From the IMG/VR virus record IMGVR_UViG_2534681626_000023: DNA of 15,519 nt; one strand, given 5' to 3'. The translations under genes and the position numbers were made by a program. Shown here in pieces: positions 1-15,519 of the stretch. Position 1 is the first letter of the stretch. The number at the start of each line of letters is the position of its first letter. The notes under the pieces were generated by a model. That model was not told the origin of the DNA. It did no database searches and saw only the letters and a program-made list of their open reading frames with translations. Source of the DNA: a virus. Its lineage: Duplodnaviria > Heunggongvirae > Uroviricota > Caudoviricetes.

Positions 1-1479
1 TCATTTTGTCGCCTCATTGCGCGGGGCAGGAATAAATTCGCCGTCATCAGTAATTTTTCCGTCCAGATATCCCGTTTTGTAATTTACGCCATAGCCATAT
101 CCCGAATGTTGTTCCTTCCAGATTAAGCGAACTTGTTTCGGATCAGCGGTGCGGTATCGCCAGAGCTGCGCGCCATCAAAGCTGTAAATGTAGCGGTTAT
201 CGCGGGCATACCATCTGCGCAAAAAGGGATGGTCATTAAGATGGGCTTCGCGTTCATCCGGAGAACGGTTATCCAGTAAGATCAGCGGTCCGTCAGATTC
301 AAACACATGTAAACCGGAATGGTATGGCCACCCTTCGGCACGCGTAAGTAAATAGCCGTGGCGTTTCCCGGCGTTGAAACGTTTGTTGATAATAAGATTG
401 GGATCATCAAGTTTCACGATTTCCAGCTTGCGGTCACCAGACTCTGTTTCGATGATGGTATAAAGCGAGTCCTGATACTGGGCGACAGCATCACTGATGG
501 GTTGAAACTGCTCCGGATCGAGTCCGGGTAATTCTTCCTGTTTACAAGCAGGTCCTTTACGCCAGAACACTTTCTTTTCCAGCAGAGAAAAATCCAGACA
601 GTGCTTTGTTAAATCTTCATCCCACGCCAGATTTTCCTTGTCGAGGACTTTACGCTGCAGCCCGTTTTTATCACGCCAGGTCAAGAGTGAGCCGGGCATC
701 CAGCGCACGACGGAAAAGGTGTCCGGGTCGGCATCAAGCTGTTCGCCGTTGATCAGGATTTTGGTCCGTGTACGAGCCAGGGTATCCCAGGGGCCAAATG
801 GCATAGCCACACAGGGATTAAACGCGGTAGAAAACTTTCCTCGCTGATCCCATGACTTTTGTGCCAGCACACGGAAACTATCGGGATCTGCGAGGCGATG
901 CCCATTGATATACAAGAAATTAGCGTCACGTAATATCAGCCCCAGTAAGTCAGGATCCCGGGGAGGCCGGAATTCCACCTGATGCAGTGTTTTGATATCT
1001 AAGCGATTTCCCCCGCCATTGTTATCTGTGCGCTTGCCTTCGAAATAGAGACTGTGTTTATCTGCGGCAAAATCACCCCACGCCTTGAACGAGGCGACAT
1101 CGACGGGAGGTTTGTCTGGCGGGGTTTGCACAACTTCACCCGCGTAGAGGATATAGCGACCATCGCTATGCAAGGAGTAATGAGGATACCAGGCCTGTGC
1201 GCCTTCATAGAGGTAGTCGGTTGTCAGATCAGTCAGAGGAGGTACTTTATCCCATTTGTCTAGTGTTGTCGGGTCTATTAATAAATTGGGTAAACGGCGC
1301 AAACTTTTGTAATTCACGTCAGGAAGAGAAAGATTTGTTTCTTTATAAGGGCGCAGGTATACCACGCCTTTTCCCTGTTTCTGGTAAATATTATGTTCAG
1401 GCGGATCAAGCCGACATCCCCATGCCGACGATAAAAACAATGAACAAGACAACAAACAAACCACATTGCGATAGTGCAT
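1..1479 (-). CDS. Host chromosomal gene, 5' part (about 492 aa in window; C-terminus runs off the window start). Predicted secreted or periplasmic protein of unknown function with an N-terminal signal peptide.
   Basis: Long minus-strand ORF open to position 1. The ORF track starts it at 1506, but 1494..1506 is Mu terminal sequence that happens to be open in frame. The first ATG on the host side is at 1479, preceded by AGGA (1490..1487) at 7-nt spacing. N-terminus MHYRNVVCLLSCSLFLSSAWGC has a basic n-region and hydrophobic core, typical of a Sec signal peptide. Family not recognised. Confidence 0.6.
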   Translation of the reverse strand: MHYRNVVCLLSCSLFLSSAWGCRLDPPEHNIYQKQGKGVVYLRPYKETNLSLPDVNYKSLRRLPNLLIDPTTLDKWDKVPPLTDLTTDYLYEGAQAWYPHYSLHSDGRYILYAGEVVQTPPDKPPVDVASFKAWGDFAADKHSLYFEGKRTDNNGGGNRLDIKTLHQVEFRPPRDPDLLGLILRDANFLYINGHRLADPDSFRVLAQKSWDQRGKFSTAFNPCVAMPFGPWDTLARTRTKILINGEQLDADPDTFSVVRWMPGSLLTWRDKNGLQRKVLDKENLAWDEDLTKHCLDFSLLEKKVFWRKGPACKQEELPGLDPEQFQPISDAVAQYQDSLYTIIETESGDRKLEIVKLDDPNLIINKRFNAGKRHGYLLTRAEGWPYHSGLHVFESDGPLILLDNRSPDEREAHLNDHPFLRRWYARDNRYIYSFDGAQLWRYRTADPKQVRLIWKEQHSGYGYGVNYKTGYLDGKITDDGEFIPAPRNEATK

Positions 1480-1493
1480 AAAGCCATCCTGGC

Positions 1494-1575
1494 TGAAGCG
1501 GCGCACGAAAAACGCGAAAGCGTTTCACGATAAATGCGAAAACTTTAGCTTTCGCGCTTCAAATGAAACAGCAGT
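1494..1575 (-). other. attR: Mu right-end attachment region (attR) with transposase MuA end-binding sites (R1-R3 type repeats); element terminus at 1494.
   Basis: Terminal TG dinucleotide at 1494-1495 followed by repeated CGAAAA / TTTCAC-containing motifs (CACGAAAAACGCGAAAG, GCGTTTCACGATAAATGCGAAAAC) resembling the MuA binding consensus. Recalled from the Mu literature, not computed. Confidence 0.75.
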
Positions 1576-1587
1576 ATTAATTACTGC
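1571..1587. terminator. Short hairpin (GCAGTA-TTAAT-TACTGC) between the mom stop and attR, with a T-run on the plus strand; possible weak terminator.
   Basis: 6-bp inverted repeat read directly. On the plus strand it is followed by TTTTTATTC, on the minus strand by TGTTTCATTT. Stem is AT-rich and short, so function is uncertain. Confidence 0.25.
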
Positions 1588-1608
1588 TTTTTATTCATTA
1601 CATGGGGA

Positions 1609-2304
1609 TCACTTAGGGTATGGCTGAACCCTGAATAGTTTGGTATTTAGCCGCTTCCTTGCTCGCTTGTTCAGGAATCTGATGTAGCGATACTGATTAA
1701 ATTTGTGCACCACGGCACGCTCTTTATTAGCCCGTAAATACACGCCTCGTTGTCCACCCCGCTTAATCGCGTTCATTGTTATCTCGTGATACCACTCACC
1801 ATCCAGCTCGTAGAACGTGCTTTCATGGCTGCCAATAAAATCAAAATTCGACGCCTGATACACAACGCCTGCGCGTCCGCAGCGTTCGTCAGCAAATGAC
1901 TGAACCCACTCCACTGACGGATACAGTAATCTGATAACTTTCAGCGCGTAGCTGATGGCCCGTGATTCAGAGTTGCGGGGCATGTCGTCGTGTAGCCACA
2001 TGCGATTCAACTCCATATAGCCCCGGTTATCCGTTTCAAGCACGACACGACGACCTGAGTTGGGGTTAAGGGCATATCCCCACTGGAGAACGCCAACCAG
2101 ATCGCGTCCGCTGAATACTCCCAGGTGGAGGTAAGAGTTATTCACAAAACGGCGGGAATAGTGCTTTGTCTGAATAATTGTGCGGGCCAGCCAGCAGGAT
2201 ATGGTTTCAACGCGCAGTTCCTTTGAACCATAGCCAACAATCTGGCCTTCATACTCAATAACGCACGGTTTCGTCAGAATGCGTGATTTTTTCTCTTTTC
2301 CCAC
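1609..2304 (-). CDS. mom: Mom DNA-modification protein (adenine methylcarbamoylation; anti-restriction), 231 aa, GTG start.
   Basis: ORF 1609..2334 translation matches the Mu Mom family as I recall it. I place the start at GTG 2304 rather than the track ATG 2334, because GGAG lies 7 nt upstream of the GUG and both sit inside a CCCAC...GUGGG hairpin (see 2300..2320), matching the known Com-dependent translational control. Overlaps com by about 50 nt. Confidence 0.88.
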
Positions 2305-2443
2305 AATGTTTCTCCGTGGGATGCTCGCAGGCATTCAGCATTATGATGTGACGTTTGCAACGCGGACACCTGATTTCAATGTGATCAAAGGAATCCGCCT
2401 TAAATAACAGTTTGTTGCAGTTTTTACAGCGAATTGATTTCAT
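2255..2443 (-). CDS. com: Com, zinc-finger translational activator of mom (62 aa).
   Basis: 62-aa [17 protein letters not shown]...[11 protein letters not shown] with two C-x2-C pairs (zinc-binding), located immediately upstream of and overlapping mom. Matches Mu Com as I recall it. Confidence 0.9.
2300..2320 (-). promoter_or_regulatory. mom translation-initiation hairpin that sequesters the SD (GGAG) and GUG start; target of Com translational activation.
   Basis: mRNA sequence CCCACGGAGAAACAUUGUGGG: CCCAC pairs with GUGGG, with GGAG and the GUG start inside the loop and 3' stem. Read directly; interpretation follows established Mu com/mom biology. Confidence 0.7.
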
Positions 2444-2555
2444 CTCACCTCCTTTGCATCAATTCGCCACTATCTTAAAAAACATCGTGGGTTGAGTGTG
2501 GTTATTGGGGCATAATCGATCTGTATTACCGATCGATTCAATTGATTCGATCGTC
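2444..2555 (-). promoter_or_regulatory. com-mom promoter and upstream control region with a cluster of three Dam GATC sites (2518..2521, 2531..2534, 2549..2552); expected OxyR and C-protein responsive region.
   Basis: Three GATC sites within 35 bp, read directly, about 75-110 bp upstream of the com ATG and overlapping the 3' end of gin. In Mu, methylation of such a triad blocks OxyR repression of mom and the late activator C binds near the promoter. Exact -35/-10 elements not assigned. Confidence 0.65.
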
Positions 2556-3119
2556 GTTTTCTATATGCGTTCGTTTGGCGGGGTGTTTTTTATACAGCGT
2601 TGACAGGGCCACATCGTAGATCAATGCGACCTGCTTGCGGGGGATTCCTTGTGCTAATAAACGCCCGGCCTGCTCCCATTCCGCTTTGGTTAGTTTAGGT
2701 GGTCGACCACCGATACGGCCTTTATTTCTGGCAGCAGCAAGTCCAGCCATCGTTCTCTCGATGATTAGTTCTCGTTCCATCTCAGCCAGGGCACCCATAA
2801 CGTGGAAGAAAAAACGCCCCATTGGAGATGACGTATCAATACTGTCAGTAAGACTGCGAAAATTAATCCCTCGCTCTCGTAATTCCCCTACGAGAGAAAT
2901 CAGATGTTTCATGCTTCGCCCGAGGCGATCCAGTTTCCAGACAACCAGCGTGTCACCTTTTTGAAGGCGCTTTAAAGCGCGTCTTAATCCCGGTCGGTCT
3001 GTCTTTGTCCCGCTTAATTTATCTTCAAATATTTGTTCACATCCTGCACAAACAAGAGCGTTTCGTTGCAAGTCTGTATTCTGGTCATTTGTTGATACCC
3101 TTACATAGCCAATCAGCAC
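2538..3119 (-). CDS. gin: Gin DNA invertase (serine recombinase of the Gin/Hin/Pin/Cin family), 193 aa, GTG start.
   Basis: Translation (V)LIGYVRVSTNDQNTDLQRNALVCAGCEQIFEDKLSG... carries the serine-recombinase catalytic motif RVSTNDQ and a C-terminal HTH region. The track starts at TTG 3137; I prefer GTG 3119, which is preceded by GGGAGA at 7-nt spacing and gives the Mu Gin N-terminus (M)LIGYVRVS. Confidence 0.9.
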   Translation of the reverse strand: MLIGYVRVSTNDQNTDLQRNALVCAGCEQIFEDKLSGTKTDRPGLRRALKRLQKGDTLVVWKLDRLGRSMKHLISLVGELRERGINFRSLTDSIDTSSPMGRFFFHVMGALAEMERELIIERTMAGLAAARNKGRIGGRPPKLTKAEWEQAGRLLAQGIPRKQVALIYDVALSTLYKKHPAKRTHIENDDRIN

Positions 3120-3173
3120 GCTGAATCTCCCGTCCAAAAGCGTAAATCATGCCATGCAGGTCAGAAACGGCCA

Positions 3174-3199
3174 TTATCTAAAACCTCGGTTTGCAGGAA
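3174..3199. repeat. gix: gix recombination site (gin-proximal), 26-bp core TTATCTAAAACCTCGGTTTGCAGGAA; inverted copy of 6309..6334.
   Basis: Read directly. It is in inverted orientation to TTCCTGTAAACCGAGGTTTTGGATAA at 6309..6334 (2 mismatches in 26) and lies within longer imperfect inverted repeats of about 92 bp (about 10 mismatches). Closely resembles Hin/Gin-family hix/gix sites. Central crossover dinucleotide at 3186-3187. Confidence 0.85.
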
Positions 3200-4270
3200 A
3201 CGGTAAATCTGGCTTCTGGCGCATTACAAAAAAACCAGAACGGCGCGGATATTCCTGATAAGGATCGCTTCCTGAGTAACATTAATGTTTACAGCAAAGG
3301 CGAGGTGGATAAGAAAAAAGGAATGCGGCAGTACGCATTTAATGCGCCGTCTAATGCAGTTGGTGGAAAGTGGTATCCAGTTATTTTCCGGCGTTCCACA
3401 GGCAGCACTGGCGAGCTGGCTTCCAGAGTGATTATAACGACCACATCTGCCACTGGTGATTACGCAATGAATAACTGCGAATTCAATGGAATGGTAATGC
3501 CTGGTGGCTGGACTGATCATGGTTCATATGCGGCAGGTTATTTTTCGACGTATCAGACTAATGAGCGCGCAATCCACTCCATTGTAACAAGCCTTAAAGA
3601 AGATGATGTATGCAGCGTTTTTTACGTTGAAGGCAGGGCTTTTCCTGTGCGGGTTTCTGCTGAAGAAGGGCTAACGGTTATTGTTCCAACTCAGGATTAT
3701 ACCGTCGGTCAAACAACATATAAGTGGGGAGCAACTAATCCCGCGACAGAAAGCACGAACGCACAAGCCATTCTGGATTTTAACAATGGGCGAGGGTTTT
3801 ATTGTTCTCACTCAATATTCGGTATTAATGCCATTTTTAGCGGAAATCTGGGGATTGGAACGGCTAATGCCCTGGGGGGAAATTCAATAGTTTTAGGAGA
3901 TAACGATACTGGGTTTAAACAAAATGGTGATGGGGTGCTGGATGCTTATGCTAATGGTGTGCATGTGTTCCGCTTTCAGAACGGTACGTTACAGAGCAAA
4001 AAAGAAATAAGTATCACTGGGCGGATATTACCGTCTGATTTCAGTAATTTAGATTCCCGATATGTAAAAGATGTTCGGCTTGGCTCACAGCAATATTATG
4101 GTGTGAACAACTGGCAAACATGGAATTTCCAGTGCCCGTCAGGTCATGTATTATCTGGTATTAATGTTCAGGATACAGGGTCCAATTCTGCCGATAATAT
4201 AGCGGGTGTTTATTACAGACCAGTTCAAAAGTATATAAATGGCACTTGGTATAATGTAGCGAGCGTTTAA
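3191..4270 (+). CDS. S: Silent alternative tail-fiber variable cassette (Sv-type), promoterless and start-less; would be fused to the constant S N-terminus after inversion (predicted fusion about 530 aa).
   Basis: ORF open from the gix site with no credible own start (the track M is a TTG inside the repeat). N-terminal residues [21 protein letters not shown] mirror the junction of the expressed fiber, and the C-terminal tip ...[12 protein letters not shown] is paralogous to the expressed tip ...CINGTWYNAGSI. Frame checked: in phase with Sc after inversion. Confidence 0.8.
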
Positions 4271-4271
4271 T

Positions 4272-4799
4272 ATGATGCACTTAAAGAACATAAAAGCAGG
4301 TAACGCTAAAACACTGGAGCAGTATGAGTTAACAAAGAAGCACGGAGTCATCTGGCTTTACTCTGAGGACGAAAAAAACTGGTATGAGGAAGTGAAAAAC
4401 TTTCAGCCAGACACAATAAAGATTGTTTACGATGCAAATAATATTATTGTCGCCATCACTAAAGATGCCTCCACGCTTAACCCTGAAGGTTTTAGCGTCG
4501 TTGAGGTTCCCGATATAACAGCCAACCGCCGCGCTGATGATTCAGGAAAGTGGATGTTTAAGGATGGAGCTGTAGTTAAACGGATTTATACGGCAGACGA
4601 ACAGCAACAACAAGCCGAATCACAAAAGGTCGCGTTGCTTTCTGAAGCTGAAAGCGTTATTCAGCCACTGGAACGCGCTGTCAGGCTGAATATGGCGACG
4701 GATGAGGAACGCACACGACTGGAGTCATGGGAACGCTACAGCGTTCTGGTCAGCCGTGTGGATACAGCAAATCCCGAATGGCCACAAAAGCCTGAGTAA
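4272..4799 (+). CDS. U: Tail fiber assembly protein, alternative copy (175 aa), currently in the silent orientation.
   Basis: Begins 1 nt after the Sv stop. N-terminal 120 aa are clearly paralogous to the 177-aa minus-strand chaperone (MMHLKNI.AGN.KT.EQY.LTK...WYEE.KNFQPDT...[18 protein letters not shown]). Tail-fiber assembly chaperone family by position and similarity. Confidence 0.85.
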
Positions 4800-4804
4800 A
4801 AATT

Positions 4805-4824
4805 AAGGCCCAATATCGGGCCTT
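4805..4824. terminator. Hairpin (AAGGCCC-AATATC-GGGCCTT) shared by the convergent U and U' genes at the centre of the G segment; likely bidirectional terminator.
   Basis: 7-bp GC-rich stem read directly, lying in the 28-bp gap between the two convergent stop codons (4797..4799 and 4828..4830). On the minus-strand transcript it is followed by AAUUUUUA. Confidence 0.45.
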
Positions 4825-4827
4825 CTC

Positions 4828-5361
4828 TCATTCTGGTTGTTCGGGAAACGTTACTGGCAGGCTGGAGGTGTCTGTAGATTCGACTTTCTGCGCATAGAGC
4901 ATCCACTCGGTTAATTTTTGTTTATTCTCGTCGGAAATGATGCCCAGCCGTAGCTGTGAGTCCCATAGCTGGGTTTTATCCCTGACAAGTTGCAACAGGC
5001 TTTGCTTTTCATTTTCCGCTTGTTGCCTCTGCTCTTCCTCGGTATAAGTTCGCTTTATCACTACGCCATCTTTGAACAACCATTTCCCCGAAATATCAGC
5101 CCGGCGATTTGCTGTAATATCAGGTAATTCAACGACGCTTGCGCCTTCCGGATTAATTGCTGAAACATCCTTTTCAATACAAATAATAACGCCGTTATGG
5201 TCATAGACCATTTTCAAAGTGTCTGGCTGGAAATTCTTTTGTTCCTCATACCAGTTTTTTCCATCATCTGAATAAAGCCATTTGATGTTAAATTGCTTTG
5301 TTAGCTGGTATTGCTCTTTTGTTTTAGGGTTGCCAGCAGTAATATTTTTTAAGTGCATCAT
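4828..5361 (-). CDS. U': Tail fiber assembly protein, currently expressed copy (177 aa).
   Basis: Immediately downstream (minus strand) of the expressed tail fiber gene. Paralogous to the plus-strand 175-aa copy. Confidence 0.85.
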   Translation of the reverse strand: MMHLKNITAGNPKTKEQYQLTKQFNIKWLYSDDGKNWYEEQKNFQPDTLKMVYDHNGVIICIEKDVSAINPEGASVVELPDITANRRADISGKWLFKDGVVIKRTYTEEEQRQQAENEKQSLLQLVRDKTQLWDSQLRLGIISDENKQKLTEWMLYAQKVESTDTSSLPVTFPEQPE

Positions 5362-5363
5362 AA

Positions 5364-6830
5364 TTAAATACTCCCCGCGTTATACCACGTTCCATTAATG
5401 CAATACTGAATTGGCCTTGCCTGAGTTATATCAATTAATTCATCACGGTTTCCGTTAACTGAACCAGTAACGACATAACCTGACCTGTCAGACCAGCCAG
5501 GACCATTCCATGTCTGAACAGATGACAGACCGCCAAGGCGAATACCTGTAATAAACCTTGAGTTACATTCTGCCTGCGTATATGCACCAACATCTCCCGC
5601 AGAGGGTTTGCGTGTTGTGGTGTAAAACTCTGACCAGTTAGCTTCAAAGCCATAACCATCACGCGCTGAACGATAAAAGATACCGCCATTTCTGTAATTC
5701 ACGCGGAACTGTACAGCAGGGCAACTCCCCGCATTCATATTAAAGTGGAGGATTAATGTCGATGCGCCACTGATATCTGCATCATAAACGCCGCTATTCC
5801 AGTTCCAGCCAACAGCTTTATCATTTGCGACCCTGCGTCCTGTTTGCCCTAAAGCAAATGCAGGCTGCTGGTTTTTCGTGTTGTAGTCTCGTCGCCAGCC
5901 AGGAGCGTAAGCATCACCATGATTAATATAAGTGAATTGAGCGTTAGTGATTCCGCCACCGCTGGACGTGCTCGGCGTGGTAACGCGTATGGTCATTGCG
6001 CCGCGGGTGCCAATAACTTCCACCACAGCACCTGCAAGACAAATATTTCCGCAACCTGTATCTGTAATGACCTTATTATTTGCATAAGCCCATGAGCCTT
6101 TGCACATCCAGTAAGGATGGTTAAATGCCCCCTGACTCTCCAGCCACGAAATAAATTGCGCAGTTGTCCAGACCTGACTATCGCCACCAATATTCAGCCA
6201 TGCGCTATATGCGCGACAGGCCCCAATATTTTTGGTGAAGGTATCTTTTCCCGGAATATCTGCGCCGTTCTGTTTTTTCTGTAATGCGCCAGAAGCCTGA
6301 TTTACCGTTTCCTGTAAACCGAGGTTTTGGATAAACAGCGGCTTATTGGGAATATCTGCTCCGTTCCGGTCTTTTGCCAGACGGGCATTGGCATTATCCA
6401 TCGCAATTTTCACCGCTTTTGCGGTGGCTGCCAGCGTTTCACTGGGGCTGTCAGTGGCACTGGTTAGCTGAACGAGGCCTTTTTTGTTCAGGCTGGCATC
6501 CCAGATATCCAGATTTTCACGTGCTGTACGCTGTGCTGATGCCCCGGCAATTTTAATTTCGCTGAGGTTATTTTTTATCAGCAGCGCGTTATTGCTCATA
6601 ATGGCTTTAATGGACAGTGCAAGCTGGTTTAATTTTGTTTTATCCGGTTGAATACCGGCTTCTTCCAGCGTGTTTAATAACTCCGCCTGCACAATATTAA
6701 ACCAGTCCATACCGGGCCATGTGATAGCATTATTCCCGTCACCTTCTGAAAACCAGCGAACGATAGCACTACGCTGGGCGGATACGGGCGGCATGACGGT
6801 TACGCCGCTGTCGTTATCAATATAAAACAT
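5364..6830 (-). CDS. S': Tail fiber protein in its currently expressed form (488 aa): constant N-terminal part Sc (6322..6830, outside G) fused to the variable cassette inside G (5364..6321).
   Basis: ORF crosses the gix site at 6309..6334 (encoding [11 protein letters not shown]). Its start ATG at 6830 overlaps the stop of the upstream baseplate gene. Assignment as the S' (G-minus) form is an inference from the sizes 488 versus about 530 aa and chaperone lengths 177 versus 175 aa. Confidence 0.85.
   Translation of the reverse strand: MFYIDNDSGVTVMPPVSAQRSAIVRWFSEGDGNNAITWPGMDWFNIVQAELLNTLEEAGIQPDKTKLNQLALSIKAIMSNNALLIKNNLSEIKIAGASAQRTARENLDIWDASLNKKGLVQLTSATDSPSETLAATAKAVKIAMDNANARLAKDRNGADIPNKPLFIQNLGLQETVNQASGALQKKQNGADIPGKDTFTKNIGACRAYSAWLNIGGDSQVWTTAQFISWLESQGAFNHPYWMCKGSWAYANNKVITDTGCGNICLAGAVVEVIGTRGAMTIRVTTPSTSSGGGITNAQFTYINHGDAYAPGWRRDYNTKNQQPAFALGQTGRRVANDKAVGWNWNSGVYDADISGASTLILHFNMNAGSCPAVQFRVNYRNGGIFYRSARDGYGFEANWSEFYTTTRKPSAGDVGAYTQAECNSRFITGIRLGGLSSVQTWNGPGWSDRSGYVVTGSVNGNRDELIDITQARPIQYCINGTWYNAGSI
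6309..6334. repeat. gix: gix recombination site (tail-gene-proximal), 26-bp core TTCCTGTAAACCGAGGTTTTGGATAA, located inside the tail fiber coding sequence.
   Basis: Inverted copy of 3174..3199. Central crossover dinucleotide GA at 6321-6322. Confidence 0.85.
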
Positions 6831-7372
6831 TAGTTATCTCCGTCATGGTAAACAAATTTATAAATCTGATGCGCGGGTTTATATTTCTCCAGTAAACATT
6901 CCAGCGCACCCGATTCATAAACACGTAACGGCGTCAGAACATTATCCAGCACCGTTGCGTTGCGATAATTTTTAATACCGTAAATATTGACCTGCGTAAC
7001 CCACTGGCCTTCTGTGGAATCCGTCAGCCTGACGGTAAAACCGTACTGCGCAGCCAGCCATTCATAAAAGCGCCGACTCAGATTGCCGGTCATACGCATT
7101 TTATTCGCGGCAGCCCGCCGGCGTTCTGACAGGGTGCCGTTTTCGCTTGTACAGTCCGGCAACCCCAGAAATGATTCCCACTCACCCAGATACCAGCGGG
7201 ATGTGGACGGGAAACGCTCCCGCAGCATTTGCCGCGCATCATCCGCCGCAGTGGCAATCACGTCGCTGATGGCCTGCGCCAGCGCAGATAATTTGCTGTC
7301 GGGGCTTTTATTCCAGGCAAGCCCTGACGGCAGTAATTGCAGAAAGGCCGTCTGCCAGGGTGTTACAGCCAT
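6830..7372 (-). CDS. R: Baseplate wedge protein (Mu gp48 / P2 gpI-like), 180 aa.
   Basis: Position between the J-like baseplate gene and the tail fiber gene, size, and translation (MAVTPWQTAFLQLLPSGLAWNK...) consistent with the gp48 / DUF2313-type family. Stop overlaps the S start. Confidence 0.8.
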   Translation of the reverse strand: MAVTPWQTAFLQLLPSGLAWNKSPDSKLSALAQAISDVIATAADDARQMLRERFPSTSRWYLGEWESFLGLPDCTSENGTLSERRRAAANKMRMTGNLSRRFYEWLAAQYGFTVRLTDSTEGQWVTQVNIYGIKNYRNATVLDNVLTPLRVYESGALECLLEKYKPAHQIYKFVYHDGDN

Positions 7373-8445
7373 TCAATTGTCCCCGGTGTTAACAGTTCCG
7401 TATTCTCCGAACGCTGGATGTCTGTCGGGAAACGCACTTCAAAATCATCCAGACCGGTAACACCTGCCACCGCACGGATAATACGGGAGGGGGCAAGTGC
7501 ACCGCCCGGCGTCACCTCATTAAAAAACATGGTATTAATGGCGTGAGTAATAGCCTGTTTCAGTTCGGCTGTCTTCGGCGATATATAAATCCGTGGATTT
7601 ACCGGCTTTGCCTTTGGTGCAAATACCGTGACATTTACACCATCAGGCTGTCCGACAATCAGGCCGGTTATCGGGTCAGTATGACCGGCGATATAATCCG
7701 CCACGCGTTCCACATCTGCCGGTTGTGGAAAAATATTGCTCCGGTTATCCATAACAAACGTCACCCCGACTGTGCCACCGCCTTTCCATGTCGGAAAAGA
7801 CCAGGCACGGGTAACGCCGCTGACTTCACGTGCCCAGCGAACATAATCAAACTGATTACCGCCGAACGGAGGATACTGGACACGATATTCCAGCCGTGAC
7901 AGCAGCTCCGCTGCACTCTCAATATCAGCTCCACCGGAAAACCCTTTTACAGTGATGGCATCGGAAACAACACTGGCAACCGGGGTGATCAACGTTAAAA
8001 GGGTATTCTCACCGGTATTTCCTGCCTCACCGGCAGCCAGTGCGGTAACGGTAATTTCCGTCGTTCCTGCACGGTCAATCACAATGGCATCAGCCAGGCT
8101 GTAAACCACACCATCAGCACGCTGCCAGCGTGTACCGGCAGGAATGGTGGTCGCTGCCGATGTGGTGACAGTCAGCGGGCCGCTGGCGGCTGTCGCCTGT
8201 TTGCGGCGCACGCCCCAGAACCGGCAGTGCTCCAGCAACTCATCTTCATCTGCTGTCGACGGGATAATCTGCCGTCCAACCCATGAAATATGCTCGTGAA
8301 AACCGGCAGCAAGGCCCGCCTGAGCATAAGCAATGGCACTCAGCGTTTTTTCACGGGCCTGAGGCCAGCTACCCGGCAGGCGCTGTTCAATATTCTGTTC
8401 TGTACGGGCAATCAGCGATGATAATGTCGGTGGTGAATAAGCCAT
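7363..8445 (-). CDS. W: Baseplate J-like protein (Mu gp47), 360 aa.
   Basis: Size and position in the baseplate module. Overlaps the downstream gene by 10 nt. Family assignment from recalled Mu/P2 baseplate organisation. Confidence 0.8.
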   Translation of the reverse strand: MAYSPPTLSSLIARTEQNIEQRLPGSWPQAREKTLSAIAYAQAGLAAGFHEHISWVGRQIIPSTADEDELLEHCRFWGVRRKQATAASGPLTVTTSAATTIPAGTRWQRADGVVYSLADAIVIDRAGTTEITVTALAAGEAGNTGENTLLTLITPVASVVSDAITVKGFSGGADIESAAELLSRLEYRVQYPPFGGNQFDYVRWAREVSGVTRAWSFPTWKGGGTVGVTFVMDNRSNIFPQPADVERVADYIAGHTDPITGLIVGQPDGVNVTVFAPKAKPVNPRIYISPKTAELKQAITHAINTMFFNEVTPGGALAPSRIIRAVAGVTGLDDFEVRFPTDIQRSENTELLTPGTIEWL

Positions 8446-8883
8446 TTAAACCCCGTTAAATGCTGCTTTAAACTCATAAGGAATAACGGAACCATCCGGT
8501 AATGTCAGTGCAATGTAGAGGTATAACCAGCCCTGATGTAACTGTTCCGCTCTGACGTTAATCGCACTCACCCGGCCCGCTGTTTTCAGCCATTCCAGCG
8601 CCTCTTCGGCATACCCTCTGGCGCGTTCCAGCGTATCCGGTGTGGCTTTTTCACGTGATAACAGCCACAACCGCGAACCGATGGGGCGGTCGCGGTAACT
8701 GTCACCCCACCATCCACGGCGATCATCTGAACCATCCGGCAGCGTGTCAGAATCCAGCGCGCGCCGGTCGGTAAACAGGGAGATTGTCACATCGGTCGTC
8801 AGACTGTCGTCGGTCAGCATATCAATGCCATCCTGTGCAATATCGCCGCGTCCGTTCGTCCAGATAATGGCTAAATCGGTCAT
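8446..8883 (-). CDS. V: Baseplate protein (Mu gp46; T4 gp25 / P2 gpW-like), 145 aa.
   Basis: Small acidic protein directly between the spike and J-like genes. Its stop abuts the next start. Confidence 0.75.
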   Translation of the reverse strand: MTDLAIIWTNGRGDIAQDGIDMLTDDSLTTDVTISLFTDRRALDSDTLPDGSDDRRGWWGDSYRDRPIGSRLWLLSREKATPDTLERARGYAEEALEWLKTAGRVSAINVRAEQLHQGWLYLYIALTLPDGSVIPYEFKAAFNGV

Positions 8884-9473
8884 TGCATCGGCCCCGTGGT
8901 TCCGCCGCTGTCGCCACGGTGGATATGCTTATCCGTCGATTTGCCATTGATGATGGCATCCGGGGCAGTAATATTGCTGTCGAACTGGCTTTTACCTTTA
9001 ACGCCCAGACCTTTCTGGATCTCAACGTCGCCGGTAAACGTGGTTCTGGGTGTATCAACGGTCATGCTTTCATCAGCGTAAATCTCAACCGTTTTACAGG
9101 TAATGATGCAGCGCCCGTCCTTTGTCAGCCTGATACGATGCCCCTCGTGGTGGTAAATGCCAGCATCACCCGGTTCAAGATTTGTCGGGCGGTAGCGGCG
9201 GTCTTCCACCACAACGGCAATCCCCTGATCACGTTGTGCACCCACACAGGCAATCAGCGCCTCTGCGCCCGGCAGAGGAACGCTGAAATGCCCGTAATTT
9301 TGCAGGCGCTCTACTTCATCGGATTCCTCATCATCCAGCAGACCGACCTGCAGGTTCTGAACCTTTCGCCCGTCGTTAATCACGTTAACAACAGCGCGCG
9401 CAAGCATCAGGCGTACACGACGCATCAGCGGTGTCAGCAGGCGGTTCATGGCGGAATCATTTACTCTTTCCAC
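8880..9473 (-). CDS. Q: Baseplate central spike / puncturing device (Mu gp45; P2 gpV-like), 197 aa.
   Basis: 197-aa ORF with beta-rich C-terminal region (…TFTGDVEIQKGLGVKGKSQFDSNITAPDAIINGKSTDKHIH) typical of gpV-type spikes. ATGA overlap with the downstream gene. Confidence 0.8.
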   Translation of the reverse strand: MERVNDSAMNRLLTPLMRRVRLMLARAVVNVINDGRKVQNLQVGLLDDEESDEVERLQNYGHFSVPLPGAEALIACVGAQRDQGIAVVVEDRRYRPTNLEPGDAGIYHHEGHRIRLTKDGRCIITCKTVEIYADESMTVDTPRTTFTGDVEIQKGLGVKGKSQFDSNITAPDAIINGKSTDKHIHRGDSGGTTGPMQ

Positions 9474-10594
9474 GGCGGCGTTTTCTCCGGGTGTCTGCGA
9501 TAATAATCTTCAACCAGCGCATCAACGCCATCATTACCATCCCCTCTGGATTTGCGGTCACTTTCAACCGGCACCAGAAAGCCTTCGCGTGGCGCAAGGC
9601 TGACACGGGTTTTCAGCCCGTCCTGGTCATTCAGTATCAGGTTAACTTTGCTGACCAGTAATTCCGTGGTTTTGATGGCATATTTCGAGGCATCAATAGT
9701 GACCAGCAGGTTCGGCATCCAGAGTTGCCCGTCCCTGCGAGTCCATCCGTCAATTTCAGCCTCAAAGGTGATGGATTTTGCCAGTCTGCGGCGTTGCTCA
9801 CGCAGGGCGCGGGCCTGTGCATCCTTCGCCGTAATTTTGCTGTCGGCAATGATGATCATCGGTCTGTAACGGGTTACATCACTGTCAGTGGCGGTCCCTT
9901 TCCGGGAGACGATACTTTTCGCATCAATATCATCACCCTCAGCGCCGTTTGCGCGGGCATAACCCTTGACAATGTATTCGCTGAACCGGTCACGGAAATC
10001 TTCGTCAAAATCCACCGTCAGCAGATTTTTCCCGAGGATCAGCTCATCAGTGACCGTACTGGCAGCCCGGCTGAATACCAGCTCTCCGGCGGCATTGCTG
10101 GTCATCAGTACACCACGTGCGCGGGAGGCCCGCACCAGCGCTTCATAAACCGTTTCTGAATGGTCAAGCGTAAAAGACGGAAACGACGCTGCGCTTTCCT
10201 TGTCTGACAGTTCCCAGCGAACGGTGACGCCATAAGGGGCGCACAGGTCACGTGCAATCTGTTCCAGTGTGCGTTTTTTCCACTGTCCGCCACGGTAAAC
10301 GGCAGCACAGTCAATCAGGTCAGCCGTTTTGTCGCGTCCGGCGACAGTGATTTTCATACTGTCAGCGGTCATCTGGCGTCGCCGTGAATCGATATAACCG
10401 GTGCAGACAATCTGCCCGTCGATTTCGAGCGTGAACTTCTTCCCCGGAGCCAGCCCGGATAAATCCGTGCCCGGTGGCACGTTCACCCCCAGCTCAAAAT
10501 ATCCGGCTACGGATTCAATCGAGCGGGTGACAGAGACTGACGTCCAGCCGGTAAAAAGCCTGCCATCCGTTCGCAGCGTGACGGTATTACTCAT
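9461..10594 (-). CDS. P: Baseplate hub protein (Mu gp44; P2 gpD-like), 377 aa.
   Basis: Size and position immediately downstream of N. 8-nt overlap with the N stop. Confidence 0.8.
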
Positions 10595-12074
10595 TAATCA
10601 CCTCAATACTGACGCCACCGGGAACAAACAACGGGTTGCTGATACCGTTCCTGCGGGCCAGCCGTTGCCAGTTCCGGCTGTTTCCTGTGTAACGGTACAG
10701 GGCCACCATTGCAGGCATCGTCTCCGGCAGGCGGTGCGTTTCACTGCCCGCCAGTTGCAGCCCGCGTTTTTCCAGGTCGGCAACAACCAGCAGACGCAGT
10801 TGTGTAAGCTGAACGCTGTCTGTCGAAAATCCCTGCTCAGATGCCGTCAGAATGACGGTATCCAGTGCAGCCCCCAGCATGGCGGCTGTTTTTCCGATAT
10901 CGGACACACTTTCAAATACCGGGGGCGTGGCTGTACCACTGTCTGAAAAGGATACCTGTGAAAAGCCGCCGTCCGGGGTTATGGCAGTTAACTGTAACTG
11001 TCCCTGTGTGACGGTAGCAGATGTGCTGCTGGCCCCGCTGGCTGTGCCGGTTGTGGTGGACGGGGCATCCAGTACAGGTGCACGGGCGGCATTATCCCTC
11101 CGGCGACTGAAATCCAGTGCCGCAGTCAGTGCCTGGCTGGCAGCTTCTGCCCGGAATGTCTGCGCCGCTGCCAGCATGACGTAGTTCAGTGTGGCAATAT
11201 TTTTTTTTGCAACCGGACTGTTGTACGAGGTTGTGATTGCCCCCTGTCTGCCTGCGGTGTCGGCATGGCGACGTTCGAACCGCTGCGCCAGACGGTTCCA
11301 GGTGGAAAATGCTGTCCGGGTATCGCATAACGATGAAACGCCGGACAGCGCCCCCATCAGCGAGGAGGCCAGCATGGCAGGCTGGTTAATCAGGCTGGTC
11401 ACAGAGCCTTTCATCGCAGAAAGCGATCCCATCAGACCGCTGACAGTCTGCGTAACCCCCAGATTGTCCACCGCATCACTGATATCATCGATAACACCGG
11501 TTACAGCTTCTATCACGGCGGTTGCCGCCGCAGTGCCATCTTTTACGGTCTGCCAGACAGAGGACAGCGTATCTCCCAGAGAACCGGTTACAGCAACGGC
11601 CTGTGCCGGTACGACTGCACTGGTGTCTGTCTCTGCGTCCGGGGCAGTATCCTGCAACGACGGATAAACGGTAACGGTGAACGCGTAATAATTCAGTTCA
11701 TCCGCTTTAGTGCGGCATTCCCATGAATCCACCATGACGTCCACAGTGCCGAAATCAGGATGTACCAGCTCACCGTTACCCGGAGCATCAAGAGCATCCA
11801 TCAGCGCACCCGCTTCATCTCTGGCTGTTTCTGCGTTGCTGTTCAGAATGCAGGCGCTGAATGTACGGGAGCGAAGCTTTTTCCCCAGGTCATTGACGCC
11901 TCCGGTATCACGTAACGGGTACTCGCGTTTAACCAGGCGACGTCCGCCAGCCTGTTTTTGCTCCTCGATGACGAGAAACGGCACGTTACGGAACGTGCCT
12001 TTGCCGGTTGTTTTCCTGCCTCCACCGGTTTTATCCCGGACAGCATTAACGGCATTTAAAGCATCTTCAAACAT
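10587..12074 (-). CDS. N: Tail protein N (Mu gp43, historically called DNA circularization protein), 495 aa.
   Basis: Large ORF directly after the tape measure gene, with Ser/Thr/Ala-rich central region. Size matches Mu N (about 490 aa). Confidence 0.8.
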
Positions 12075-12078
12075 GGTT

Positions 12079-14154
12079 TTACCAGCCTGTAATGTAGTTA
12101 TCGCCCGCGTAAATATTCAGCCCCATACCATCCTCGGTGACGCGGGAACTGGTCAGACGTAACCCCTCGCCAAGTTCGACGCGCAGCGAGGCTTCCGCAT
12201 TGACTTTTTGTTCCTGCGGTTCCTTATCCGTGACCGTCCATTTCTGATACAGGTCGGTTACAAAACCGCCCAGATACTCCCCGGCGACACTGCCCAGCGT
12301 GGCACCGGCAACCGTACCCAGCGGTCCGGCAAGGCTGCCAACGGCACCGCCGAGCCATGCACCGGCTGTACTGCCAATTGCGCCTGCTTTTTCATGGGTT
12401 GACGCCTGCTCATCCATCAGGACGGGGGCAAGCTGGAGTGCCCCCATTACCGGGCCACCCAGACGTGACAACGCACGACCGGCACCTTTCCCCATCCAGC
12501 CCAGCGCCCCGGCACCTTTTGTCACAACCCGACCGATCGCACTGCCTGCAAGTTTGTTTCCGATACCGGAAAACCACCCGCCAGCGGCACGCCCGGCATC
12601 AGCCAGCTTTCCGACCGCTCCCGTAACCAGTTGCCCGGCAGCACTGCCTGCAAGCCTGCTCAGAAGACCGGATTTACCGGGTAAAGGTAATGGTGCAGGC
12701 CGTGCCGTTACCGGTACGCCGGGTGGGGGTAATGCCAGAACAGGGCGTGGTGCAGGTAATGCCAGCGGCTGTGGCCCGGACAGCAATAACGGCTGGCGGG
12801 GTAACAGGGGCGTCATGCCTTTGCCTTTCCGGGTGCGACCACCACGGCCACCGCTTCCGTAACCGCCGAACCCGTGAGGCCAGTTAGTGACAAACACACG
12901 CTGAATGCCGATACCCTGCAACAGCGTCTCAGACGTCATGGCATCCGGGACCGGCAGACCTGCCTGCCCACGTTTGCGGTTTCGCATCCAGCGCCACATA
13001 CGACGCCCGGTTTTAAACGGATAACTGGCAACCTGCCATGAGGGTTTTGCCACGGCCCAGCCTGCTCTCAGGGCTTTATTGGCAAGCCAGACAGACACCA
13101 GAACAGCAGCCAGTTTTTTCAGGCTGACAATATTCTGGTCAACCCATGCCAGCGCATCTTTACCCGGTTTCAGCCAGCGCCATAATTCCTGCGCCGCGAT
13201 TTTTACCTTTCTGAACGTGGTCAGGAATTTCTGACCAATGTTTTCTGCCAGTGCGTCCAGCTCCCCGGATTTATCCGCCGCATCGTGCCAGTTAAGCACC
13301 CGGCGCATCTCGTTCTTGATTTCTTCAAAGGGGCCGCTGTTTGCCACCTTCGTGCGAAACTCAAGCAGGTTGCCCTCCATCTGGGCCATCATCCCGTCCC
13401 AGGAGTTCATGGCAGCCGCCTGTGCGCCTTCTGACTGCTCCAGCAGGGTCCGGAATACCGTCAGAATGGCTTTCTTGCCCAGCTTGCCTTTTTCACCCAG
13501 CTTACGGATTTTTTTCTCATCCTTACCCGTTGCATCTGCCAGCACCTTGTAAACGTTGATACCGTAACCGGTCAGCAGGTTGGCGTCCGCCGCCGTGATT
13601 TGCTGGCGGGCAAACATCTGTTTGAACTGTAACGAAGCCCCCTGCGCGGTGGGTAAATCCCAGCCATGCATCGCGCCCTGATTCTGTAGCATGGTGATGA
13701 ACTGTTTTACCTGGGCGTCAGTCATGCCAAACGCCGTTGATGTGCGGATTTCCTGCAGAACGCCGCCCAGCCCCCAGGTGGTTTCTTTTGCGTTCTGCTT
13801 CGCCCACGCCATCATGGCCTGTGCTCTGGCCTTATCGCCGTGATACAGCGAGTTCATGGCGATAATCTGCTGCTCACGCTGGGCGGCGGCACCAATAAAC
13901 AGTTTATTGGCGGTGTAACCCACGCCAGCGATACCCAGCGCCCCGGCTGACAGCATTCGGAATGTACGGGTTGACAGTGAACCCATTCTGTCAATGGCAC
14001 CAGAAACGCGCACAACCTCCATACGCAGGGCACGAAGGGAACTTTGTCCGCTACGGGACAGGGCGTTTATCTGGTTCGAATACTCGCGGGAACGCCGGGA
14101 AAGATTGCCATTAAGATCAATAATGACAGACGCCTTTAAGCGTTTCCCGGTCAT
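12079..14154 (-). CDS. Y: Tail tape measure protein (Mu gp42), about 691 aa from the ATG at 14154; the ORF track extends it to an upstream ATG at 14247 (722 aa).
   Basis: Longest tail ORF, with a Pro-rich segment and C-terminal Gly/Ala-rich GxxxG-type hydrophobic repeats typical of tape measure proteins. ATG 14154 has a good SD (AGGA, 7-nt spacing); ATG 14247 has a poor one. Start is uncertain. Confidence 0.8.
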
Positions 14155-14298
14155 AGAGATTTCCTGATTTAACGGTGATATTGAGAGAGGGTTTTCGCCT
14201 GCTGGCAGTGCCGGAAAAAGCGGGACAGCGGGAGAGACAAGGCCCATTCCGGGCCACTTTTCAGAATAACGCCAATCGCTGTCGCCGCTTTCTCAATA

Positions 14299-14733
14299 TC
14301 ATTCCGGCACCGCAGCCACTCGCCCCCGTTCTTGCGTCAGCGATGCCGCCACAGCCATGTCGTGCATCTCTGTGGCCAGCGACAGACGCTGGAAGTCATC
14401 GACGGACAGCTTGCGCATCAGCGCCAGCGATAACGGGCCTTTGATGCAGCCCACGCTGGCAATCTGTCGGCGCAGCATTTCCAGTCCCATCCGGGACGGG
14501 GAACTGACCAGCACCGGGCCTTCCTTGCTCATTACCAGCTTTTCAGCCGCCGCCTGGGCATCAATCAGATCGCCTGCGGTCAGTTCACGCAGTGTCACGT
14601 CATACTGCATTTCAGTCTCGTCACCGGTGCCGAACGCCAGGCCGTCTTTCAGTTTCAGGCCACCGGACTGAAGCTCAGCCACAATACTGTCACGCAGTTC
14701 CTGTGCTTCAGGACTTAAATTCATTTCGTCCAT
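14299..14733 (-). CDS. Tail assembly chaperone (Mu gp41-like), 144 aa.
   Basis: Acidic small protein between the tail tube and tape measure genes, the conserved chaperone position. RBS AAGGGG upstream of the ATG at 14733. Confidence 0.75.
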   Translation of the reverse strand: MDEMNLSPEAQELRDSIVAELQSGGLKLKDGLAFGTGDETEMQYDVTLRELTAGDLIDAQAAAEKLVMSKEGPVLVSSPSRMGLEMLRRQIASVGCIKGPLSLALMRKLSVDDFQRLSLATEMHDMAVAASLTQERGRVAAVPE

Positions 14734-14742
14734 TGTTTCCCC

Positions 14743-15099
14743 TTATGCAATGCGTTTGCTTTTTTTTGCCGTCAGTACCAGCGAAATTTCGCCGCCGTCG
14801 TTTTTCGGTTCATCCGCCTGCCAGGCATTCGCCAGCATCCAGGTTTCACCGGTATCAGCCTGGAATTCGACGGTGATGTTTTCCCAGTCGATAATTTCAT
14901 CCAGCCCGATGGGACCGCCCCCCGGAATTTTGCATTCCACTTTTGCGGCACGTGGTTTACCTTTCCAGCCATAAACCCGCGAGCCGGTCACTTCTTCACG
15001 GGTGGTGCCGGAAGGCGTGAAGGAGGCACCTTCCATTGATTCAAGCTCCATGCCATTGACACGGATGAACGCCACCCCCTGACGCTGATTTCCAGCCAT
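14743..15099 (-). CDS. M: Tail tube protein (Mu gp40), 118 aa.
   Basis: 118-aa ORF directly downstream of the sheath gene, with a strong RBS (AAGGAG). Size matches the Mu tube protein. Confidence 0.85.
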   Translation of the reverse strand: MAGNQRQGVAFIRVNGMELESMEGASFTPSGTTREEVTGSRVYGWKGKPRAAKVECKIPGGGPIGLDEIIDWENITVEFQADTGETWMLANAWQADEPKNDGGEISLVLTAKKSKRIA

Positions 15100-15108
15100 A
15101 AATGCTCC

Positions 15109-15519
15109 TTACAGAATGAACTGAACTTGTGCCGCGAAAATGCGGAACTGGTTAATCAGATTCGGGCCGCACAGCACATCAAGACGGTCTTTGTCGTCCT
15201 TGTTACGTGCCACATACAGCTCCTCTTTGAACGTGTCGAAATCCTCGACCAGTCCGGCGTTTTCCCATTCTTCAAACAGTGCCAGCAGCTCCGTTTTGAT
15301 CACGGATGGCGTCACCACGGCCTGACCGGTGGCAAAGCGGGTGCCATCACTTGCCAGCTTGTGGTTCGGGAATTTCTGCGTGATGCGGGTTCGCAGCGAA
15401 TAACGCAGATAACTCAGCGTGGCGATGGTATTCACGTTCAGATAAGACGGATCGCTGTCACCATACTTGTTCGTGCGGTACATCGTGATCATGCGTTCAA
15501 TCTGCATTTCACCACCATC
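15109..15519 (-). CDS. L: Tail sheath protein (Mu gp39), C-terminal part only; N-terminus lies beyond the window end.
   Basis: ORF open to the window edge with no upstream stop. Position immediately upstream of the tube gene. The track M at 15507 is internal. Confidence 0.8.

Follow-up and report, generated by a model that had tools for sequence, protein, structure and literature searches.

A Mu-like prophage of Escherichia coli carries an active tail fiber switch, assembled in the G(−) orientation

Layout and gene content of the locus

The window, by which we mean the whole 15,519-nucleotide stretch that was analyzed (IMG/VR record IMGVR_UViG_2534681626_000023), contains an invertible segment of 3,135 bp (positions 3187 to 6321), flanked by two inverted 26-bp gix sites with a common TC core and adjoined by the invertase gene gin (Table 1). 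With this core at 3186/3187 and 6322/6321, the segment boundaries are exactly those given in an earlier note on this DNA (3187 and 6321), and the open reading frame and cassette sizes listed there all agree with our recomputed values. On one side of the segment, the Mu right end (TGAAGCGGCGCACGAAAAACGCG) begins at position 1494. Mom, Com, and Gp48 were all detected by Pfam; gp48 (6830 to 7372) lies upstream of the constant fiber part, Sc, and the genes upstream encode Gp46, Gp45, a Baseplate_J protein, and a tape-measure protein. The locus thus shows the features of a Muvirus prophage, namely, the right end, com and mom, and Mu baseplate and tail genes flanking the switch. A promoter scan returned sites that were no more numerous than in shuffled controls.

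Table 1. Features of the invertible segment and its surroundings (window coordinates)
Feature	Coordinates	Strand	Remarks
gin, serine DNA invertase, 193 aa	2538..3119	-	GTG start, as in Mu; adjoins the segment; intact; catalytic Ser9 present
Candidate recombinational enhancer (Fis-binding region), 5' part of gin	3012..3086	-	By position and identity to Mu; putative
gin-side gix	3174..3199	+	TTATCTAAAACC TC GGTTTGCAGGAA; core TC at 3186-3187; two substitutions relative to Mu gix, both outside the core
Silent alternative fiber C terminus, 1,084 nt	3187..4270	+	~361 codons, no start of its own; PHROGs tail fiber families
Silent tail fiber assembly chaperone, U type, 175 aa	4272..4799	+	90.9% identical to Mu U; Pfam Caudo_TAP
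Terminator-like GC-rich hairpin between the convergent chaperone genes	4805..4824	-	Consensus scan only; putative
Expressed chaperone, U' type, 177 aa	4828..5361	-	97.2% identical to Mu U'; Pfam Caudo_TAP
Expressed variable fiber C terminus (S'v), 958 nt	5364..6321	-	Length of the Mu S'v feature; part of the 488-aa ORF
Fiber-side (Sc-side) gix	6309..6334	-	TTATCCAAAACC TC GGTTTACAGGAA; core 6322-6321; identical to both Mu gix sites
Constant fiber N terminus (Sc), 509 nt	6322..6830	-	Outside the invertible segment; length and position of the Sc feature of the Mu record

The gix sites make up the outer 26 bp of longer inverted-repeat arms (3174 to 3271 and 6237 to 6334) of 98 nucleotides each, which are 88% complementary, differ at 12 positions, and lose their homology at the outer edge of gix. 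The repeat exceeds the 34 bp present in Mu because both cassettes of the window share their first ~25 codons. In the gin-side site, which carries the only departures from Mu gix, the core and the bases adjacent to it are intact. The outer half-site, TTATCT, also occurs in the site of strains 95JB1 and 95NR1, which has inverted, and the inner half-site, GGTTTG, was found in 14 IMG/VR contigs as well as in the pix site of e14. That the A-to-G change in this inner half-site disables gix was considered and rejected, since the same base is present in e14 pix, in the 14 phage contigs, and in the recombinant junction described below. One of the two substitutions falls on a position that we take, from Hin-hix studies, to be a minor-groove contact, and the inversion rate of this prophage could therefore differ from that of Mu. 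When a genome contig collection was scanned for the variant half-site, the 29-mer gave no match; the 18-mer matched 42 loci, nearly all from taxa unrelated to enterobacteria, and these are taken to be chance matches.

The invertase encoded next to the segment is identical to Mu Gin in 190 of its 193 residues, the changes being R39K, K46R, and A184T, and it retains Ser9, the catalytic serine of Gin (PMC3575834). It carries the Pfam domains Resolvase and HTH_7, and the Gin structures PDB 3UJ3 and 4M6F match over its full length. Over its 5' part, gin hardly differs from the Mu gene; three 15-mers in it match the Fis consensus and are unchanged in position and sequence relative to Mu. Kahmann et al. 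reportedly located the Mu enhancer inside the invertase gene in 1985. From these identities we infer that Gin is active here, that it depends on Fis, and that the enhancer lies where it does in Mu.

The expressed fiber is of the Mu S' type

Alignment to the reference proteins of Mu showed which fiber is joined to Sc in the assembled sequence. The 488-aa fusion shares 473 of 488 residues (96.9% identity) with Mu S', against 48% identity with Mu S, PDB 8JU3 (Mu S/S', 488 aa) matches it over its full length, and the segment aligns to the Mu reference, a G(+) sequence, in the reverse orientation. Taken together with the U' type chaperone that accompanies it, these alignments place the window in the G(−) state, with S' and U' joined to Sc.

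The earlier note had proposed the G-minus (S'/U') state on the basis of size, and that assignment stands on both proteins (96.9% to Mu S' and 97.2% to Mu U'): the 488-aa form is S' and not S, and, as set out below, neither gix site is defective. The note added that in Mu this state redirects host range away from E. coli K-12 toward other enterics. The S' protein of SfMu carries 18 substitutions relative to Mu S', and its host range is a different one (PMC4406740); ~97% identity to Mu S' therefore does not suffice to read the host range of this prophage, and statements on it are extrapolations from Mu.

The silent cassette differs from Mu S

In silico inversion of the segment yielded an open, in-frame fusion of Sc to the silent cassette of 530 aa, without stop codons, bearing out the earlier prediction of a fiber of about 530 aa with a 175-aa chaperone after inversion. 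The tip of this second fiber is not the one found in Mu, however. Protein identity to Mu Sv amounts to 36% in a local alignment confined to the distal part, the DNA match is limited to the last ~60 nucleotides, and homology over the full length was not found; the alignment also ruled out that the cassette represents Mu S with an insertion. Its best matches are instead side tail fiber proteins of P2-like and lambdoid phages, and it is ~97% identical to a cassette of enterohemorrhagic E. coli (EHEC) P2-like prophages, minus 56 aa. Among 5,426 complete E. coli genomes, every relative is longer by these 56 aa, and in the data searched, the shorter form was confined to the lineage of the window prophage. 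A simple deletion of the P2-type form was rejected as its origin: 231 nucleotides have been replaced by 62 nucleotides that do not align, so the cassette is better described as a mosaic than as the product of a clean deletion. The silent cassette is a mosaic receptor-binding tip distinct from Mu S, which corrects a reading of it as Mu S. Since the opposite cassette differs from Mu S, inversion need not restore K-12 tropism.

The 530-aa fiber would combine the Mu constant part, a lambdoid/P2-like side tail fiber domain, and a shortened connector to a SfMu/P2-like tip. We speculate, giving this somewhat less than even odds, that such a fiber could confer a second receptor specificity, unlike that of Mu S or Mu S'. 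If so, this family would shuffle whole receptor-binding cassettes among Mu-, P2-, and P1-type phages by way of a common gix-flanked module.

Both orientations of the same prophage are present in public assemblies

The window is identical (100% over 12,830 bp) to contig APYR01000170.1 of assembly GCA_000358795.2. Over 4,212 bp, another IMG/VR contig (L020) corresponds end to end to the window in its inverted form, apart from 1 mismatch. Its junction combines the outer base of the Sc side (a C, equivalent to position 3179) with the inner base of the Sv side (the G at 3193), while the other ten arm polymorphisms all remain with their own cassette. The crossover must therefore have occurred within positions 3180 to 3192, a 13-bp interval that includes the core at 3186-3187. 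Since an inverted copy of this prophage exists and has precisely the predicted hybrid junction, the gix sites are not defective, and the switch is active in the window prophage.

Further assemblies point the same way. In contig APYP01000023.1 (GCA_000357345.2), from a neighboring whole-genome shotgun series, the segment has Sc at both ends, fused in one case to S'v and in the other to the second cassette, a chimera that would be the expected product of a mixed population. The exact fusion proteins have also been deposited in NCBI, from 3 contigs for the 488-aa form and from 6 for the 530-aa form. Related prophages flip as well: two assemblies of E. coli W are distinguished solely by an inversion that runs exactly from gix to gix, and between the outbreak isolates 95JB1 and 95NR1, a related P2-type module is inverted over exactly 3,303 bp. 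With both states found, the assembled orientation represents one of two subpopulations and not a trait of the strain, as the earlier note had cautioned; the two junctions of APYP01000023.1 and the deposits of both fusion proteins now substantiate that caveat.

It might be argued that G(−) was selected, with the host strain or niche being infected solely by S'-type particles. Mu lysates grown by infection are indeed dominated by the orientation able to infect the host, whereas induced Mu lysates hold both types about equally (PMC4406740), and SfMu was likewise deposited in G(−). A prophage, however, is not subject to adsorption selection, and both states occur in sibling assemblies and in E. 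coli W derivatives; moreover, of the complete E. coli genomes that carry a Mu-type Sc, 45 in all, 12 have it joined to S'v and 23 to Mu Sv. We therefore regard selection for G(−) as very unlikely.

We give even less credence to a frozen switch, in which the gix substitutions, or a loss of Gin or enhancer function, would lock the prophage in S'/U' and make orientation a stable property of the strain. Such a scenario could draw on the two substitutions that separate the gin-side gix from that of Mu, and on the suggestion by the SfMu authors that a single-base change beside the gix core may reduce or abolish inversion (PMC4406740), a change that we confirmed in the SfMu sequence. In addition, the junction of Sc with the window-type cassette was found in none of the 5,426 complete E. 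coli genomes; because IMG/VR and NCBI drafts do contain this junction, its absence there reflects a cassette that is rare in Mu-like prophages rather than a defect. Against the scenario stand the inverted copy of the same prophage, carrying the exact hybrid gix expected from a crossover at the core, the neighboring-series contig with both junctions, and the six contigs with the 530-aa fusion. The variant half-sites, furthermore, are either widespread or present in sites known to invert, the core and its adjacent bases are intact, and Gin agrees with Mu Gin in 190 of 193 residues.

Least probable of all is inversion through RecA-dependent homologous recombination over the repeat: while this is 98 nucleotides long here versus 34 bp in Mu, a 98-nucleotide repeat of 88% identity is a poor RecA substrate, homology does not extend outward beyond gix, there are 12 differences between the arms, and the exchange took place between 3179 and 3193, in the 13-bp interval with the core, and not in the remaining 78 nucleotides of homology.

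We thus return to a site-specific switch. The locus combines an invertase adjoining the segment, inverted sites with the same core, in-frame fusions, a chaperone for each cassette, and both orientations, as expected of a Mu-type G segment (Din family), and we put at roughly 0.93 the probability that it is the G segment of a Mu-like prophage in the E. coli chromosome, with an active Gin/gix switch assembled in G(−). Following the mechanism described for Gin (PMC3575834, PMC3798978), the invertase would bind both inverted gix sites, with host Fis sitting on the enhancer within the 5' portion of gin. Cleavage of both sites at the central TC, a 180-degree turn of one half of the complex, and religation would then flip the 3,135 bp. 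The flip swaps the C-terminal receptor-binding cassette, together with its cognate chaperone, that follows the fixed first 170 codons of the tail fiber gene. In the assembled state, S'v with U' is the joined cassette, giving the 488-aa, Mu S'-type fiber of G(−), and the inverted state would produce the 530-aa fiber with its non-Mu mosaic tip and the U-type chaperone.

Implications

The host-range switch of Mu is known biology, and apart from the non-Mu tip of the alternative fiber, there is little new in the locus. It does illustrate the classic switch cleanly in nature, with both states present in public assemblies. For annotation, this means that the assembled orientation should not be taken as a property of the strain, and that switches of this kind leave their mark as contigs that break off or turn chimeric at gix, as in APYP01000023.1. 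As the second cassette shows, wild E. coli Mu-like prophages swap receptor-binding modules with P2-like prophages, an exchange that bears on the prediction of prophage host range and on the engineering of Mu- and P1-based delivery vectors.

Comparison with known systems

Mu itself (AF083977) has the same order of elements, from gp48, Sc, and gix, through cassette/chaperone and chaperone/cassette, to the second gix, gin, com, mom, and the right end. Its Sc (509 nucleotides), S'v (958 nucleotides), and fiber-side gix also correspond to those of the window. Mu differs in its second cassette, Sv (335 codons, versus 361 in the window, with the 36% local identity mentioned above), and in having been deposited in G(+) with a 34-bp repeat, whereas the window is in G(−), with a 98-nucleotide repeat and two substitutions in the gin-side gix.

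The best phage match is the Shigella phage SfMu (KP010268), which covers 83% of window positions 2400 to 7400 at 95.3% identity and in the same orientation. Its deposited sequence is likewise in G(−) and encodes a 488-aa fiber of the S' type; the outer half-site TTATCT is common to SfMu and the window, and the C-terminal 82 aa of its silent cassette agree with those of the window cassette at 89% identity. The first ~860 nucleotides of that SfMu cassette, however, are unrelated to the window's, the two S' proteins differ at 21 residues, and the substitution beside the core of the Sc-side gix of SfMu (TTATCCAAAACG) is absent from the window. The Mu-like prophage of E. coli W (NC_017635/NC_017664) shares the architecture and the inversion between two assemblies of one strain but has the classical Mu Sv as its second cassette (504-aa S), and both of its gix sites are those of Mu.

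In EHEC P2-like prophages (O103:H2 12009, O111 95JB1/95NR1, and O145), the invertase and the whole segment are 95 to 98% identical to the window, including the cassette that is silent there; both states are seen in the 95JB1/95NR1 pair, with 95NR1 expressing that very cassette. These modules differ in their constant part, which is of the P2 H type and yields fibers of 700 or 798 aa, in their cassette, which is 56 aa longer, and in their constant-side site (TTATCGAATACC).

More distant systems, i.e., the C segment of P1 and P7 (Cin), the P segment of e14 (Pin), and Salmonella Hin, likewise use serine invertases, 26-bp sites, and a Fis-bound enhancer. The segments of P1 and P7 have S'v, U', and U in common with the window at 89 to 94% DNA identity, and e14 pix has the same half-site G as the gin-side gix. 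All of these systems have other constant parts and other core dinucleotides (AA in pix and hix versus TC/GA in gix), and Hin differs further in that it controls a promoter and does not create a fiber fusion.

Fiber state and segment layout

The expressed 488-aa fiber shows 96.9% identity (473/488) to Mu S', against 48% to Mu S, and gives a full-length match to PDB entry 8JU3 (Mu S/S', 488 aa). For the 177-aa chaperone, identity is 97.2% to Mu U' and 56.5% to Mu U; the silent chaperone of 175 aa shows 90.9% identity to Mu U. At the DNA level, window positions 4208 to 6334 match the opposite strand of the Mu reference, which is in the G(+) state. By these sequence matches, the assembled orientation corresponds to the G(-) (S'/U') state, and the S'/U' identities, the opposite-strand match, and 8JU3 bear out the earlier note, which had proposed this state from protein sizes.

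All features described in that note were found at the positions it gave, and its boundaries of the invertible segment (3187 and 6321) proved exact, since the TC dinucleotides at the center of the two sites occupy 3186/3187 and 6322/6321. Sc (509 nt) and the expressed cassette (958 nt) have the lengths annotated for Sc and S'v in Mu record AF083977. In silico inversion joins 509 nt and 1,084 nt in frame, yielding a 530-aa product without a stop codon.

Features of the invertible locus and its surroundings
Feature	Window coordinates	Remark
gp48	6830-7372	leftward order from the tail genes: gp48, fiber gene, invertible segment, gin, com, mom
Sc (constant fiber N terminus)	6322-6830	
Fiber-side gix	6309-6334	
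Fiber-side repeat arm	6237-6334	
Expressed cassette (S'v)	5364-6321	
U'-type chaperone gene	4828-5361	expressed
U-type chaperone gene	4272-4799	silent
Silent cassette	3187-4270	
gin-side repeat arm	3174-3271	
gin-side gix	3174-3199	
gin	2538-3119	
com	2255-2443	
mom	1609-2334	
Mu right-end sequence	starts 1494	TGAAGCGGCGCACGAAAAACGCG

The gix sites form the outermost 26 bp of each of the two inverted-repeat arms, which are 98 nt long and 88% complementary. The fiber-side site (TTATCCAAAACC TC GGTTTACAGGAA) does not differ from either Mu gix site; the gin-side site (TTATCTAAAACC TC GGTTTGCAGGAA) carries two substitutions, both outside the core. The outer half-site TTATCT also occurs in SfMu and in the site of outbreak isolates 95JB1 and 95NR1, and the inner half-site GGTTTG is present in e14 pix and in 14 IMG/VR contigs, in combination with several different outer half-sites. 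Since natural sites thus carry the same half-sites and the core is untouched, we rejected the idea that the substitutions are defects.

Inversion in the same prophage

A second IMG/VR contig of this prophage (IMGVR_UViG_2531839129_000012; 4,212 bp) aligned end to end, with one mismatch, with positions 3180 to 7391 of the window inverted in silico, but with the actual window only as two opposed pieces. The repeat arms differ at 12 positions. At the junction, this contig has the Sc-side base at the equivalent of 3179 and the cassette-side base at 3193, placing the crossover within 3180 to 3192, around the core at 3186-3187; the remaining arm differences keep to their cassette. Confinement of the exchange to this interval is the signature of Gin acting at gix rather than of homologous recombination along the 98-nt repeat. 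The contig starts within the gin-side gix, as is typical of contig breaks at flipping repeats.

In APYP01000023.1 (GCA_000357345.2; positions 1 to 7771), Sc and gp48 flank the invertible segment on either side, so that both the Sc-S'v and the Sc-Sv junctions are present and both the 488-aa and the 530-aa fiber genes are called. We read this as an assembly chimera derived from a mixed-orientation population or culture. Among NCBI contigs, the exact 488-aa protein was found on three and the exact 530-aa protein on six, with the accessions of both in one ENC series; for the 488-aa protein, the NCBI name gives E. coli P0299917.8 (a strain name shown for one entry only). The WGS prefixes APYP, APYQ, and APYR run consecutively and, judging from this accession series, probably represent sibling isolates from one project. 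The anatomy of the locus, its two orientation states, and the crossover interval are direct observations.

Gin, candidate enhancer, and proposed mechanism

Gin and its Mu counterpart agree at 190 of 193 residues (differences R39K, K46R, and A184T), and the window gene has the same GTG start codon as in Mu. The Mu enhancer is reportedly located in the 5' part of gin, a location attributed to Kahmann et al. in 1985; this part is almost identical to that of Mu, with Fis-consensus 15-mers at the same positions and of the same sequence. Ser9, the catalytic residue of Gin (PMC3575834), is present.

Gin dimers would bind each gix site and, together with Fis at the enhancer, would assemble on supercoiled DNA into a synaptic tetramer. 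Cleavage of all four strands at the 2-bp core via phosphoserine links would follow, and half of the tetramer would turn 180 degrees before religation of the ends (PMC3575834, PMC3798978). In this prophage, inversion exchanges the last 319 codons of the fiber for 361 others and places the cognate chaperone gene in the late tail operon. Fis dependence, the switching rate, and the fiber receptors are what we infer here.

Prophage setting

The window holds the right-terminal part of a Mu-like prophage that resides in an E. coli chromosome, with the phage forward direction on the window minus strand. Bases 1 to 1480 show 99.9% identity to the chromosomes of many E. coli strains, and NCBI contig APYR01000170.1 (GCA_000358795.2) matches the window at 100% over 12,830 bp. 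The minus strand of 7363 to 15519 carries Mu baseplate and tail genes: gp47 (Baseplate_J), gp46, gp45, gp44-like, DNA_circ_N, and the tape-measure protein. In window 1 to 1509, the prophage right end falls 16 nt within the 5' end of a hypothetical gene for 502 aa that is whole in E. coli D5 (WP_000580514.1); this gene neighbors one of the DKNYY family and is located between cyaY and lptM. A GTG at 1506, within the Mu end, restores a 501-aa open reading frame, so that the interruption of the host gene falls in its first codons.

The silent cassette is not Mu S

That the silent cassette encodes Mu S was not borne out: only its last ~60 nt match Mu DNA, and identity to the Mu Sv protein is local (36%) and limited to the distal part, which rules out Mu S. 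Instead, its first 795 nt are 97.6 to 98.2% identical to a cassette of enterohemorrhagic E. coli P2-like prophages (O103:H2 12009, O111 95JB1/95NR1, and O145), also present in one Mu-like prophage (strain MB06231), and its terminal 82 aa match the 95NR1 fiber exactly and SfMu ORF52 at 89% identity. In the middle (3982 to 4044), it has 62 nt where all close relatives have 231 nt and is therefore 56 aa shorter. Across 5,426 complete E. coli genomes, the long form was found in 12 of the 12 best-matching places listed; IMG/VR yielded the short form in just two contigs, both from the prophage studied here. A clean deletion is rejected because the 62-nt and 231-nt stretches do not align, so that the short form is a mosaic replacement.

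In translated searches, the N-terminal ~230 aa grouped with side tail fibers of lambdoid, 9g-like, and P2-like phages and the C-terminal ~145 aa with P2-type fiber tips, while PHROGs assigned the cassette to tail-fiber families. In 95NR1, the long form is expressed as the end of a fiber of 798 aa, so cassettes of this type function in relatives.

Related prophages and host range

Two E. coli W assemblies, NC_017635 and NC_017664, are the same over 7.5 kb except that the sequence between the gix sites is exactly reverse-complemented, a 488-aa fiber being expressed in one and a 504-aa fiber in the other; the W derivatives KO11FL and LY180 agree with NC_017664. Similarly, comparison of 95JB1 with 95NR1 shows an exact inversion of 3,303 bp between identical flanks. 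Mu-type Sc and gp48 were present in 45 of 5,426 complete E. coli genomes, with the Sc-S'v junction in 12 and the Sc-Mu-Sv junction in 23 of these 45, counts that are not independent, since several of those genomes are clonal derivatives. E. coli ST18 (NZ_CP060709.1) has two Mu-type Sc copies (at ~388,500 and ~498,500), one with S'v and the other with a Mu-type Sv, and thus two Mu-like prophages assembled in opposite states. In SfMu (KP010268), the fiber-side gix at locus position 2067 (TTATCCAAAACG TC GGTTTACAGGAA) has a C-to-G change beside the core, in agreement with the single-base change that its authors suspected of lowering inversion (PMC4406740).

E. coli K-12 is the host of Mu G(+) particles; the hosts of G(-) particles are E. 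coli C, Citrobacter freundii, Shigella sonnei, Enterobacter cloacae, Serratia, and Erwinia, and induced lysates contain both particle types in about equal amounts (PMC4406740). The host range stated in the earlier note is therefore right for Mu but, as the case of SfMu illustrates, not precisely transferable to this prophage. Between the SfMu fiber and Mu S', 18 residues differ, and SfMu plates on Shigella flexneri serotypes Y and 3b, with O antigen as the receptor, while an induced Mu lysate, expected to contain G(-) particles, formed plaques on 0 of 12 serotypes tested (PMC4406740). The window S' has 15 residues that depart from Mu S' and 21 that depart from the SfMu fiber, and five of its residues are of the SfMu type (K185, D350, D352, S354, and F402). 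Since the alternative fiber is not Mu S, the 530-aa state need not be K-12-tropic.

Apart from this correction regarding the other cassette, the interpretation as a Mu-type switch in the S'/U' state is supported: the locus is the canonical G-segment switch of Mu, carried by a new prophage with a variant second cassette. Compared with Mu, the inverted repeat is longer (98 nt versus 34 bp), and, unlike Mu Sv, which departs immediately after gix, the two cassettes of the window have their first ~25 codons (QETVN.ASGALQK.QNGADIP.KD.F) in common.
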